Assembly: GCA_964016885.1 (NCBI GenBank)
Contig: OZ024741.1
Coordinates: 305,536,001 to 305,600,000 of the forward strand
Length of the DNA: 64,000 bases
Origin: Eledone cirrhosa
Lineage: Eukaryota
Direction: 5' to 3'
Shown here: positions 26,172 through 31,244 of the stretch, piece by piece
Layout: the number at the start of each line of letters is the position of its first letter
Numbering within the stretch: the first letter of the stretch is position 1
Translations under genes and position numbers: made by a program
The notes under the pieces: generated by a model
Seen by the model: only the letters and a program-made list of their open reading frames with translations
Database searches by the model: none
Told to the model about the DNA's origin: nothing

Positions 26172-26546
26172 GATATTAAATAAATGGAAACTATATTTAT
26201 AAAACCATATTTATTTCATTATACATATTTCAGGGATACCAAATTAAAATATGGTATGCCTTCACCAGACAAAATACAATATATAAACAGTTTTATAAAT
26301 AATTTTGACGTACCCTATTAAATGCAACCATTATTTTTGGAAACTGTTTATATATTGTATTTTGTCTGATGAAGGCATACCATATTTTAATTTGGTATCC
26401 CTGAAATATGTATAATGAAATAAATATGGTTTTATAAATATAGTTTCCATTTATTTAATATCTACTCCAAAAACTTGTCGAGTGCTTTATATCAGTTATA
26501 AAATATTTACTTGTTGTATCCCAACAATTTTAAATAGAACTTTTGC
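26172..26546 (+). mobile_element. Fold-back hammerhead element, 'TAAATGGAAAC' family
   Basis: Arms 26172-26293 and 26341-26462, 47-nt spacer, ~84-bp tail; in (TA)n. Confidence 0.8.
26358..26422 (+). ncRNA. Type I hammerhead ribozyme
   Basis: TATTTTGT-CTGATGA-AGGCATACCA...TGGTATCCCT-GAAA-TATGTA-TA|ATGAAATA; cleavage predicted after 26414. Confidence 0.75.
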
Positions 26547-26690
26547 ATATATATATATATACACACACACACACACACACACACACATATATATATATAT
26601 ATATATATATATATATATATATATATATATATATATATATATATATATATATATATATATATATATATATATACACACACATATATATAT

Positions 26691-27026
26691 ACAATATATT
26701 AATAAATGGAAACTATATTTATAAAACCATATATATATTTATTATATATATTTCAAGGGCCACCAAGGCAAATTATGGTCTTTTTTTCGGGTATGTCAAT
26801 ATTTATTTATAAAACGAATCTGTATTTTATCTGATGAAAGCGCACCATAATTTGCCTTGGTTGCCCTTGAAATATATATATAATAAAATAAATATGGTTT
26901 TATAAATATAGTTTCCATTTATTAATATATTGTGTATTTACTCCACTAATTTGTTGAGTGCTTTATATCAGTTATAAAAAAACTTTAAGCTTGTTGAATT
27001 CCAACAAATTAAATATAACCTCTGCA
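26691..27026 (+). mobile_element. Fold-back hammerhead element, 'TAAATGGAAAC' family
   Basis: Arms about 26691-26779 and 26844-26933; tail ends CCAACAAATTAAATATAACCTCTGCA|TATA. Confidence 0.8.
26823..26890 (+). ncRNA. Type I hammerhead ribozyme
   Basis: TATTTTAT-CTGATGA-AAGCGCACCA...TGGTTGCCCTT-GAAA-TATATATA-TA|ATAAAATA. Confidence 0.7.
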
Positions 27027-27759
27027 TATATATATATATCCCGTCTAACCCATGCTAGCGTGGAAGATAGATGTTAAACGATGATGATGATGAGGATGAT
27101 GATGATATATATATATATATATATATATATATATATATGTATGTGTGTGTGTATGTATTTATATACATATACATATATATATATTGTATATATATATATA
27201 TATATATATATATATATATATATATATATATATATATATATATATATATATATGAGAGAGAGAGAGAGAGAGAGAGAGAGAGAGAGAGAGAGAGAGACTG
27301 ACTGACAGACAGAGAGGCAGAGACAGAGTGATGGAAGAGAGACCCATAAAGATAACCGAAATAATAATCTAATTACGAAATCTGAAATGTAACGCAAGAG
27401 TAGATCGCACGCAACAGTCATGTGCATATATAACAACACATACGCACACTCCTATTTACTTACACAACTTTGTACCCACAGACATGTACACACACACACA
27501 TAGGCTCGTATATACTCACAGAAGTTTGCGGCCGCACTATATCATATATACAAACATTCATAGATAGGAATATACGCACACACCAGCTCACAATTTTAAA
27601 AGAATTTAGACAGATAAAAAAAAAAAGAAAATGAAAATCAACAGAAATCCATGGATGTTACCTTCCTGTCAGTTTTACCGCTGTACTTGTATTCTACACC
27701 GTATAATGATCTGACCTGTATACCGGGTTAAGGTTAGGGTTACCTTTTGTAGTTGAGGT

Positions 27760-28680
27760 AGACTGCACACTGAACTGTAAATGACCAGGTAAACTGCACA
27801 CTGCACTGAATTGTAAATGGCCAGGTAGATTGCGGGCTTAACTGTAAATGGCCAGGTAGACTGGCCAGATAGACCGCACGCTGAACTGTAAATGGCCAGA
27901 TAGACCGCACGCTTAACTGTAAATGACCAGGTAGACTGCACACCGAACTGTAAATGGCCAGATAGACCGCACGCTGAGGTGTAAATGGCCAAGTAAGACC
28001 GCACGCTTAACTGTAAATGACCAGGTAGACTGCACACCGAACTGTAAATGGCCAGATAGACCGCACGCTGAGCTGTAAATGGCCAGGTAAGATCGCACGC
28101 TGAACTGTAAATGGCCAGGTAAGACCGCACGCTGAGGTGTAAATGGCCAGGTAAGACCGCACGCTGAACTGTAAATGGCCAGGTAAGACCGCACGCTGAG
28201 GTGTAAATGGCCAGGTAAGATCGCACGCTGAACTGTAAATGGCCAGGTAAGACCGCACGCTGAGGTGTAAATGGCCAGGTAAGATCGCACGCTGAACTGT
28301 AAATGGCCAGGTAAGACCGCACGCTGAGGTGTAAATGGCCAGGTAAGACCGCACGCTGAACTGTAAATGACCAGGTAAACTGCACGCTGAACTGTAAATG
28401 ACCAGGTAAACTGCACACTGAACTGTAAACGGCCAGGTAGACTGCACACTGAACTGTAAATGGCCAGGTAGACTGCACACTGAACTGTAAACGGCCAGGT
28501 AGACTACACACTGAATTGTAAACGGCCAGGTAGACCACGCGCTCTGTGTAAACGTAAATATTTACCATGAAATATATGTAGTTAGACTGCACGCTGAACA
28601 GTTAATGACTAGGTAGACTACACGCTGAATTATAAATGTGCCGCTAGACTGCATGCTAAATGTAAATGACGAGGTAGATT
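27760..28680. repeat. 30-31-bp minisatellite (ACTGTAAATGGCCAGGTAAGACCGCACGCTGA), roughly 28-30 copies
   Basis: Direct tandem repetition with alternating AACT/AGGT variants. Confidence 0.95.
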
Positions 28681-28754
28681 CAGGACATATTAAGCTTTCA
28701 CCGAGCCCCTGTCTGAAAATGTAATTGAGAATCTTGCGTATTACTTATGGTAGG

Positions 28755-28977
28755 AATAATAATAATGATTTCTACTATAGGCACAAGGCCAGTAATTTGG
28801 GCGAAGGGGAAAGTCGATTAAATCGAACCCAGTGCATTACTGGTACTTTATTTTATCGACCTCGTAAGGATGAAAGGCAAAGTTAACCTCGGCGGGATTT
28901 GAACTCAGAACGTAAAGTGACATGACTATATGCCGCAAAGCATGTTGTACGACGCTCTACCGATACTGCCAATCCAA
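28755..28977 (-). mobile_element. tRNA-derived SINE (family A), full length
   Basis: Reverse complement of 31939-32163; (AAT)n at both flanks. Confidence 0.8.
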
Positions 28978-30494
28978 ATAATAATAATAGTAATAATTTG
29001 GCGCCAGTGTGAACATTGCACATTAAAGATTATATGACCAGGTAGCCCGTACAAAAAACTGTAACCAAGAAATGAATGAAAAAAAAAAAAGAACAGGTAA
29101 AAAAAGAACAGAAACTTACCAAATGCTTAATTTGTATATTATATATATATATATATCTATCTATATATATATATATATATAAATTATATATATATAATTT
29201 GTTTTCCTTTCTGTCCCAGAAATAAAATATCTCTTGTGTTTGTTCTCACCTAAAACTGTTTTAAACTGTTATAGTGTTTTCTGTTGTGAGTATGCTGTGT
29301 GATTACGTGAGTGGGTTTATATGTAGTAAAAGTTGAAAGCAAGAGAGAGTGAAAGAAAGAGAGAGAGAGAATGTGGTGATATTCTTCTCCGAGCGAGAAT
29401 AAGCGAACTGTTCAAAATTCCAGGTAGCGATCTATAATCTAACAAAATGTTGGATCCGCCGCGCACAAGTGGAAAGAAAACTACAAAATAAAAACAAGAC
29501 AAAAAAAAAATGTAAATAACAATACTACTACTACTAATAATATCTAAACAACAAAAGTAACAACTAAATTACACACACACACACACACACACACACACAC
29601 ACACACACACACACACACACACACACACACACAATCACACACGCGCGCGCGCGCACACATATATATTATATAATTTCGGTTGCAACCACCCCCACCATAT
29701 ATATATATAAGTTTCGTTTGTACACACCTATATATATATATATATATATAAATAGAGTTACAACATCGATAATGGATTTAGTCAATGTTCTAAATGCCTT
29801 CTGATTTCTATTATGTATACCAAGAATTGACCCTAAAACCCGTTATATATACACCCCTATATATATCAAAGCTTCGATTTTTACTAAGCTTCCACTTTTA
29901 TATATATATATATATATATATATATATAGGTGTGTATATATATATATATATGGGTGTGTATATATAGGTGTGTATATATAGGTGCGTATATATATATATA
30001 TAGGTGTGTATATATAGGTGTGTATATATATATATAGGTGTGTATATATAGGTGTGTATATAAAATATATATATATAACTTTCCTTTGTACCCACACCTA
30101 CATATATATATATATATATCATCATCACCGTTTAACGTCCATCTTCCACGCTTGCATGGGTTTGATATATATATAGTTAAAGAGAATTTCTTAGAATAAA
30201 AAGACTCACTTGCAGAATATGATGCACTTTCTCTTGTTTTCCTTTGTTTCTTATTGTTGATTGTTCGTTCTTACTTTTCCTCTTTCGCACTTATCTCGTT
30301 AAAACTAAATAAATATTTGTAATAATACATAAAATATAAAAACCATCATTATTTTTGGTTAAATTTTCTCTGTGTGTGTGTGTGTGTGTGTATGTGTGTG
30401 TGTGTGTGTAGACAGACAAATAAATGGTGTGGGCTCTCCGTTGGGATCCTAACTATATATATATATATAACTATATATATATATATATCAATGC

Positions 30495-30760
30495 TATTAA
30501 TAAATGGAAACTATATTTATAAAACCATATTTATTCTATTATAAATATTTCAAGGGTACCAAAACTTTGGTACGCTCTCATCAGATAAAATACAGAGCTT
30601 GTTTTATAAATATTGAAATATATATAATAGAATAAATATGGTTTTATAAATATAGTTTCCATTTATTAATATCATATTCCAGAAAATCTGTCGACTGCTT
30701 CGCATCTGTTATAAATATATATATTTGTTGAATTACCAACAAATTAAATATCTCTTTGCT
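30495..30760 (+). mobile_element. Fold-back element, 'TAAATGGAAAC' family; forward arm internally deleted
   Basis: Outer arms start at 30495 and end at 30671; tail to ~30760; in (TA)n. Confidence 0.75.
30532..30592 (-). ncRNA. Type I hammerhead ribozyme (in the inverted arm)
   Basis: Minus strand TATTTTAT-CTGATGA-GAGCGTACCAAAG...TTTTGGTACCCTT-GAAA-TATTTA-TA|ATAGAATA. Confidence 0.7.
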
Positions 30761-30784
30761 TATATATATATAATATATATAATA

Positions 30785-31244
30785 TACAATAAATTAATAA
30801 ATGGAAACTATATTTATAAAACCATATTTATTTTATTATACATATTTCAAGGGCAACCAAGGCAAATTATGGTGCTCTTTCATCAGATAAAATACAGATT
30901 TGTTTTATAAATAAATATTGACATACCCGGAAAAAAGACAACCTTAACGGTTGGCGCTTCCTGGATAGTTACTATCCAGGAAGCGCCAACCGTTAAGGTT
31001 GTCTTTTTTCCGGGTATGTCAATATTTATTTATAAAACAAATCTGTATTTTATCTGATGAAAGAGCACCATAATTTGCCTTGGTTGCCCTTGAAATATGT
31101 ATAATAAAATAAATATGGTTTTATAAATATGGTTTCCATTTATTAATATATTGTGTATTTACTCCACTAACTTGTTGAGTGCTTTATATCAGTTATAAAC
31201 ATTTTAAAGTTTGTTGAATCCCAACAAATTAAATATAACCTCTA
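30785..31244 (+). mobile_element. Fold-back hammerhead element, 'TAAATGGAAAC' family (longest copy)
   Basis: ~185-bp arms around a 1-nt loop at 30970; ~90-bp tail; hammerhead on both strands. Confidence 0.85.
31046..31111 (+). ncRNA. Type I hammerhead ribozyme
   Basis: TATTTTAT-CTGATGA(31054)-AAGAGCACCA...TGGTTGCCCTT-GAAA(31092)-TATGTA-TA|ATAAAATA; mirror copy on the minus strand at about 30829-30894. Confidence 0.75.

Follow-up and report, generated by a model that had tools for sequence, protein, structure and literature searches.

Penelope-like elements (PLEs) that carry an endonuclease (EN+) are described as inserting together with an inverted, 5'-truncated copy, a 30-40 bp tail on one side only and a bias toward (TA)n targets (PMC8557442). 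In the available text of that paper and of PMC11167929, the origin of tandem and inverted PLE insertions is called unresolved. In vitro, the PLE protein of the green anole, Poseidon PAc, cuts AT-rich DNA on both strands and extends each of them, with uncleaved RNA as template and with starts at two RNA sites that flank the tail; the protein is predicted to form a dimer (PMC11167929). Minimal PLE hammerhead ribozymes form families rich in compensatory changes, and their activity is weak, with dimers being needed (PMC4209133). For Octopus vulgaris, 31 recently active PLE families have been listed, with no structural detail in the available text (PMC13282606; for further background see PMC8969392). 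Here we describe five copies (c1 to c5) of one hammerhead-bearing family, family A, in a 64,000-nt stretch of the genome of Eledone cirrhosa (assembly GCA_964016885.1, contig OZ024741.1, positions 305,536,001 to 305,600,000; hereafter the window). The copies are very probably dead, heavily 5'-truncated insertions of a high-copy PLE family that retain only its pseudo-LTR (long terminal repeat) end, and their junctions point, with a probability that we put at roughly 60%, to twin priming at two sites, in which separately primed cDNAs are joined head to head.

Structure of the copies and their assignment to PLEs

All five copies (c1, 26172-26546; c2, 26687-27025; c3, 30491-30760; c4, 30781-31244; c5, 49577-49702) share one layout, namely a (TA)n array, an inverted arm, a sense arm, a tail of 84-88 nt and a (TA/CA)n array. 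In each of the five the 5' end is formed by a head-to-head inverted, 5'-truncated copy and the tail is found at one end only. At most 83 nt are kept upstream of the hammerhead core. The printed tail lengths are 84, 93, 85 and 85 nt, the 93 nt of c2 becoming 88 nt if its TA-like bases are assigned to the arm. The two arms of a copy differ by substitutions at 1/122 sites in c1, 3/93 in c2 (plus indels), 2/63 in c3 and 3/189 in c4. The original prediction of four clustered copies, with a fifth near 49579, was correct for all five at the coordinates measured here, as were its spacers of 47 nt in c1, about 64 nt in c2 (measured, 64 nt) and 1 nt in c4; it placed the outer boundary about 85-90 nt from the 3' end and named no element class. 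The copies are embedded in AT-rich animal DNA with many microsatellites, fragments that resemble LINEs (long interspersed nuclear elements), along with one Gypsy-like LTR element; the short interspersed elements of the window presumably resemble those of octopus.

The inverted 5'-truncated copy, the one-sided tail, a hammerhead near the 3' end and variable 5' truncation at high copy number are all features of PLEs. Membership rests on the termini, and every feature that could be tested there fits. Together with EN+ PLE insertions (PMC8557442, PMC3846280), the copies have a head-to-head inverted pseudo-LTR, a tail at one end, microsatellite targets and no readable target-site duplication; the combination of inverted copy, one-sided tail, (TA)n targeting and covarying hammerhead is published PLE architecture and not new. 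Unlike the published insertions, the inverted form is in the majority here and no copy contains an open reading frame (ORF). The family is probably of the Hydra type, as (TA)n insertion with a canonical hammerhead near the 3' end is found in the Hydra clade, although not exclusively (PMC8557442). That clade is defined by protein motifs (RWK, DKT, CxCX5C, no CCHH), whereas the present copies are known from their termini only, and the hammerhead of Hydra-1_Obim differs from ours (PMC8557442). Two other classes were rejected. Non-LTR retrozymes likewise have a type I hammerhead, no coding capacity and a proposed PLE origin (bioRxiv 10.64898/2026.07.22.740005), but they are head-to-tail tandem arrays, whereas our copies (0/5 with tandem units) are arranged head to head, with their ends at fixed PLE sites. 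A miniature inverted-repeat transposable element (MITE) or foldback DNA transposon has terminal inverted repeats at both ends, which does not fit copies whose tail extends past the inverted repeat at one end.

A fixed outer boundary and one tail per insertion

In alignments, the outer end of the inverted arm falls at the equivalent of c4 positions 31156-31160 in all five copies, 48-56 nt beyond the predicted hammerhead cut and 2-9 nt ahead of the YTC that opens the tail (in c2 this gap shrinks from 9 nt to 4 nt if the TA-like bases are assigned to the arm). This boundary, site A, is anchored to a motif just downstream and not to the hammerhead cut site. It had been predicted 45-50 nt past the cleavage site; the near-constant position stands, and the measured distances run slightly beyond that range. 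Four public sequencing runs (X1, X5, X14 and X15) were aligned to 30971-31244, and runs X6-X13, with small shares, were left aside. Contigs matching this segment numbered 7009 in X1, which indicates a high copy number, and 57 in X5, from a second organism. Read depth drops toward the 5' end and the ends recur, as expected of variable 5' truncation with fixed 3' ends. Among the loose ends listed (23 of 610), ends that enter (TA)n occur in X1 at 31149, with 85 contigs, and at 31158, with 26 contigs, and they are seen in X14, X15 and X5 as well. Reads of this kind are compatible with a tail-less single arm as much as with an inverted one; site A is nevertheless a recurrent element end beyond the copies of the window as well. 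The shared boundary and the loose ends outside the window bear out the predicted fixed outer boundary and support a defined second priming site, which fits the two in vitro start sites of reverse transcriptase (RT) in PMC11167929.

The number of tails was counted over 13 inverted insertions, comprising 11 short-spacer inverted repeats in the window plus c5 and an insertion at 31700 that were added by hand. Five inverted-repeat rows at 882-1155 had been dropped before the count, four of them microsatellite-like and one (1095-1155) with TA at both ends, which we take to resemble another element class. With the exception of 49956-50071, every insertion (12/13) bears a single tail of 61-134 nt and has, at its tail-less end, a microsatellite no more than 8 nt away. 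Inverted insertions outnumber single-arm remnants in the window (13 vs at least three). Independent choice of the start site on each strand would leave at most half of the insertions mixed (P <= 0.5^12 = 0.0002). Since 12 of the 13 are mixed, the two ends of an insertion are coupled, either through one RNA primed at both sites, as in twin priming of LINE-1 (L1), or through a fold-back that is resolved at site A. The arms of c1, c3 and c4 share subfamily-specific bases.

Inner junctions

In c1, c3 and c5 the tail-less inverted arm exceeds the sense arm in length, in c2 the reverse holds, and the arms of c4 are equal. The 47-nt spacer of c1, predicted with the right length, is in fact element body, as it aligns antisense to the body of c4 (0/2000 shuffles, compared with 1445/2000 for the sense orientation). 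In c3 the hammerhead is confined to the inverted arm, and what had been taken for an internal deletion reflects a sense arm of reduced length, beginning after stem II. The arms of c5 do not overlap, its sense part being the tail's final 26 nt; at 31700, a copy from a different family has the same construction, with a sense part that begins within the tail. In both of these insertions, therefore, nothing was available to fold back from the sense part. A fold-back cDNA begun at the tail end would give a tail-bearing arm at least as long as the inverted arm, which is true of c2 and c4 only. The predicted variable fold-back point, understood as simple fold-back, is thus not supported, because the tail-less arm is longer in three of the five copies. 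Microhomology at the junctions amounts to 2 nt in c2, 3 nt in c5, 0 or 4 nt in c3, 0 nt in c4 and probably 2 nt in c1, where it is read from a loose end in X5. In the copies at 6 kb and 25 kb the orientation of the spacer is ambiguous.

Eight opposite-strand joints were found among the read joints listed (15 of 25). Two of them have a short tail-bearing piece, one is symmetric, three are unorientable, one is ambiguous and one (31149/31158) appears to be joined end to end at site A. At 30973/31153 the short piece continues into the tail, as it does at 31012/31172 if that joint is head to head; 30971/31140, of ambiguous geometry, was excluded from the oriented count. Joint 31149/31158, from a single locus represented in X14 and X15, apparently links site-A ends of opposite strands, and no such arrangement is seen in the window.

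Proposed insertion mechanism and its alternatives

In two-site twin priming, the RT-endonuclease of the element would cut a (TA)n array on both strands. Of the two 3'-OH groups, one would prime cDNA synthesis from the tail's 3' end (site B) and the other from an internal position that is fixed, at the tail's 5' foot (site A). The two cDNAs would halt early, each independently, and their 3' ends would be joined head to head, often via 0-4 nt of microhomology, followed by mutual fill-in. Such a process would leave a fixed outer end, exactly one tail, a variable inner junction and either arm longer. The anatomy, the fixed site A, the variation in which arm is longer, the (TA)n flanks and the covariation come from the present data, and double-strand cutting and the two RT start sites from published work. 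Both primings would take place within one insertion, and one RNA may have been copied twice; PLE RTs are not known to have an RNase H domain. The template RNA was not self-cleaved at the hammerhead, because the arms cross the cut site intact.

A close parallel is L1 twin priming, in which the second target end primes internally and short microhomology accompanies the head-to-head joining of two cDNAs (PMC2912911, PMC11702581). In L1 the internal site is variable and the overlap is 1-10 bp, whereas here the site does not vary and the overlap of the arms reaches 189 nt. In common with our copies, PAc has a tail bounded by two RT start sites that are fixed, targets rich in AT, priming on both strands and uncleaved RNA as template; its start-site RNA differs in having no counterpart of our tail motif, and the available text does not derive inverted insertions from the two sites (PMC11167929). 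In the literature covered, which did not extend to subscription papers or Repbase, we found no test of arm asymmetry in PLEs, no twin priming proposed for their inverted insertions and no motif of the kind described below. If programmed two-site twin priming operates, genomic junctions would be a direct read-out of the unsolved integration step of PLEs.

Several observations weigh against two-site twin priming by a PLE. In vitro, the two strands were not seen to differ in their start sites (PMC11167929), and the strict one-tail rule is not explained by this alone. Only two of the eight opposite-strand joints listed could be given an orientation. The microhomology shows no clear excess over chance (P 0.03-0.27, depending on how c3 is read). 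The centres of c4 and of the insertion at 21682-22103 are near-perfect palindromes (0-1 nt), as the self-priming model predicts (PMC3846280), and later central deletion is a possible source of the asymmetry. No coding region for the telomerase-like RT and GIY-YIG endonuclease that define EN+ PLEs was found in the 10 of 54 window ORFs that were scanned, and pattern scans of metagenome and viral contigs found no longer PLE copy. Finally, the tail of about 85 nt exceeds the 30-40 nt of published PLEs (PMC8557442).

Under self-priming, a single cDNA would fold back and copy itself as far as site A, where the endonuclease would resolve it, and the asymmetry would arise from later microhomology-mediated deletions in an unstable palindrome. 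This model is published (PMC3846280), with the tail attributed to endonuclease resolution (PMC8557442), and it accounts for the single tail, for arms of the same subfamily and for the 0-1 nt centres; the microhomology is compatible with deletions too. It requires, though, a second event in three of the five copies, one that would have deleted the entire sense arm in c5 and at 31700. Moreover, c1 is asymmetric by 47 nt though its arms are nearly identical, symmetric palindromes of 189 and 211 nt persist nearby, and in this small set asymmetry does not rise with arm divergence. We consider self-priming unlikely. The two models are separable by counting which arm is longer in the thousands of short intact inverted insertions of the genome.

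A variant of two-site twin priming would employ two RNAs, one for each subunit of an asymmetric dimer, with starts at A and B. The arms of c2 differ at the family-polymorphic site 31085 T>G (about 36% of the X1 depth), where the inverted arms of c2 and c5 (c2L, c5L) have G and the sense arm of c2 (c2R) has T. This is one site only, and the subfamily-specific bases common to both arms of c1, c3 and c4 make the variant improbable. Origins outside retroelements, as a MITE-like or foldback DNA element, by local duplication or through an assembly artefact, are most improbable of all: long inverted repeats in a TA context are MITE-like, c1+c2 and c3+c4 are paired and no coding region was found, but the inverted repeat is non-terminal, its centres are variable truncations, the hammerhead covaries, c1/c3 differ at 12.7% of sites and c2/c4 at 5.2%, the flanks share one inverted common repeat only, substitutions are present in the arms, and four independent runs contain strand-switch joints and the same ends.

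The tail-start motif

Aligned tails of four families share RCTC, 10-18 nt and GAGYRC just inside site A. A loose form of this motif is present in 7/10 tails and matches 1.6% of random segments; the motif fails in c3 and in the families at 21.7 kb and 31.3 kb. Scanning the window gave 13 matches against a shuffle mean of 2.2 (largest, 8), a partly circular comparison, as the pattern was built from these tails. Eight of the matches are in the elements described here, two in apparent single-arm remnants and two in Gypsy-like LTRs, and one is unexplained. As independent support, the motif can be recognized by eye at the 3' ends of Hydra-2_Amil and Hydra-2_Ajap and, more weakly, in two more of the six novel consensuses in the supplement of PMC8557442. 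A 15-mer of Hydra-2_Ajap, chosen after inspection, matches exactly at 41011-41025, in the tail of the 41-kb family (0/100 shuffles). Two 21-mers of family A and six motifs of the other families had no match in the available part of that supplement, where line breaks and divergence could hide matches.

Read as an RNA stem, the motif shows one compensatory pair, a result reached by 80/500 shuffles, and it may be a sequence signal. An intron acceptor with a reading frame in the tail was dropped as a candidate, the frame being open in c4 only (by eye). We offer it as a tentative and somewhat doubtful proposal that programmed two-site twin priming, with A used once and B used once and possibly one RNA copied twice, is the main mode of insertion in this genome, site A being set by a motif that at least four families of the window have in common with Hydra-clade PLEs from coral and sea cucumber. 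The motif is a mutable candidate for the second start signal.

The hammerhead ribozyme

The ribozyme is a minimal type I hammerhead with the core CUGAUGA...GAAA, a cut after UA, an 8-bp stem I, a 9-bp stem II and a stem III of 2-3 bp; the CUGANGA/GAAA core, the NUH cut site and the three stems of this type are all present. Intact cores number five, in the sense arms of c1, c2 and c4 (c1R, c2R, c4R) and the inverted arms of c3 and c4 (c3L, c4L); one further core is mutated and one is cut off. The predicted conservation of CTGATGA/GAAA in intact cores agrees with this, the broken core (CTGGTGA) being that of the inverted arm of c1. Stem II also varies between copies while staying paired, as predicted, with compensatory changes at 3/9 pairs and 98% of 106 cells paired (6 distinct sequences), although the stem AAGAGCACCA that had been assigned to c2 belongs to c4. 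A C-C mismatch at the fourth pair of stem II is kept in all three lineages, and stem I varies through wobble only. The covariation score was reached by 0/500 shuffles and the count of covarying pairs by 77/500; slid controls gave none, and 3' of the hammerhead 0/19 pairs covary. With a structure drawn by hand on the same sequences and three lineages only, this is supportive and not a formal covariation test, and individual hammerhead folds are mostly no more stable than shuffles (z -0.6 to -2.3).

Rfam returned no hammerhead at the gathering score, and none among the E-value matches listed (150 of 164, covering 21.5-41.2 kb). Minimal PLE hammerheads have been described by custom descriptors. 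The covariation supports the predicted selection on the ribozyme fold in the source elements, which has already been reported for PLE hammerheads (PMC4209133). Those hammerheads resemble ours in being type I, with a long stem II, a short palindrome-like stem III and families with compensatory changes; in Schistosoma, opposite-strand pairs lie 100-700 bp apart, similar to the copies here. Unlike the published forms, stem II here has the conserved C-C mismatch, and there is no extra base after the core (PMC4209133, available text). By analogy with that work, self-cleavage of the monomer is probably weak, as predicted from a stem III of only 2-3 bp. The copies themselves are probably dead ribozymes, because with opposite-strand cores in a palindrome the transcript would fold as one long hairpin. 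Neither Rfam nor annotation based on proteins picks up such stubs, and they can pass for MITEs or microRNA hairpins.

Target sites and clustering

Four of the five copies fall in a span of 4609 nt, for which a uniform null gives P 0.006. With copies placed on (TA)n arrays the probability is 0.15-0.19, and it stays the same after removal of nine flanking arrays; some arrays may be products of such insertions, which qualifies this null. The interval 24-32 kb contains 33/55 (TA)n arrays, and other families are inserted there too. Clustering had been predicted to reflect target preference: a preference for (TA)n is seen, as is known for PLEs (PMC8557442), whereas family-specific clustering was rejected, as it reaches no significance beyond the local (TA)n density. 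Block duplication of c1+c2 into c3+c4 was rejected on the differences between copies and flanks given above, and the copies are independent insertions. The features of the five copies are collected in Table 1.

Table 1. Positions of the arms, tails and flanking arrays of copies c1 to c5 in the window
Feature	Position	Strand	Remarks
c1 inverted arm	26172..26340	-	includes 47-nt 'spacer' 26294-26340 (antisense body); core mutated to CTGGTGA
c1 sense arm	26341..26462	+	hammerhead core starts 26366; predicted cut after 26414
c1 tail	26463..26546	+	84 nt; tail-start motif 26465-26485
c2 inverted arm	26687..26779	-	ends within stem II; junction microhomology 2 nt
c2 sense arm	26780..26937	+	longer arm of c2; hammerhead core 26831; predicted cut after 26882
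c2 tail	26938..27025	+	tail-start motif 26941-26961
c3 inverted arm	30491..30612	-	longer arm; sole intact hammerhead of c3, 30584 down to 30540
c3 sense arm	30613..30675	+	begins shortly ahead of GAAA; 0 or 4 nt of junction microhomology
c3 tail	30676..30760	+	85 nt; motif degenerate
c4 inverted arm	30781..30969	-	189 nt; hammerhead core at 30886
c4 sense arm	30971..31159	+	hammerhead core 31054; predicted cut after 31103
c4 tail	31160..31244	+	85 nt; motif 31162-31182; conserved hairpin near 3' end
c5 inverted arm	49577..49677	-	ends within hammerhead core
c5 sense part	49675..49702	+	last ~26 nt of tail only; junction microhomology 3 nt
(TA)n target array left of c1	26129..26170		
Further (TA)n arrays flanking copies	26547-26673, 27026-27039, 30454-30488, 30761-30772, 31245-31309, 49563-49575, 49703-49719		

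Other elements in the window

Several further insertions accompany the five copies. At 21682-22237, a 211-nt perfect palindrome with a 134-nt tail lies between (TA)n arrays and contains a hammerhead whose stem II measures about 110 nt and whose stem III is palindromic. The insertion at 40786-41067 has the same architecture, belongs to a different family and has a CUGACGA hammerhead. A third family (6019-6198, 25109-25282 and 31700-31799) has short inverted arms, a fixed outer end and a tail of 77-81 nt. A minus-strand family at 31310-31682 and 25435-25610 has a GAAA-palindrome-UA half core, with CTTTTGA in place of CUGAUGA; a duplicated 16-mer at the 31.5-kb centre suggests an additional template switch. 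Short palindromes with GAAA-palindrome-UA motifs, and with CTGATGA within the spacer, occupy 32183-32380 and 49956-50090. Apparent single-arm remnants, with no clear inverted copy, are found at 25883-26128, 51400-51590 and 51978-52075; the first of these has a hammerhead with a palindromic stem III and adjoins the (TA)n of c1.

The Gypsy-like LTR retrotransposon, on the minus strand at about 34700-38900, encodes protease, RT, RNase H-like and integrase domains and has two LTRs. A GC-rich minisatellite with a 31/32-nt unit (27734-28690) separates the two pairs of copies. Finally, a dispersed repeat that opens with a TA run and has an internal (GT)n is present at 1095-1260, 1440-1560, 50080-50140 and 50700-50880, one copy having a 25-nt inverted repeat; its ends are presumably of the Helitron type.

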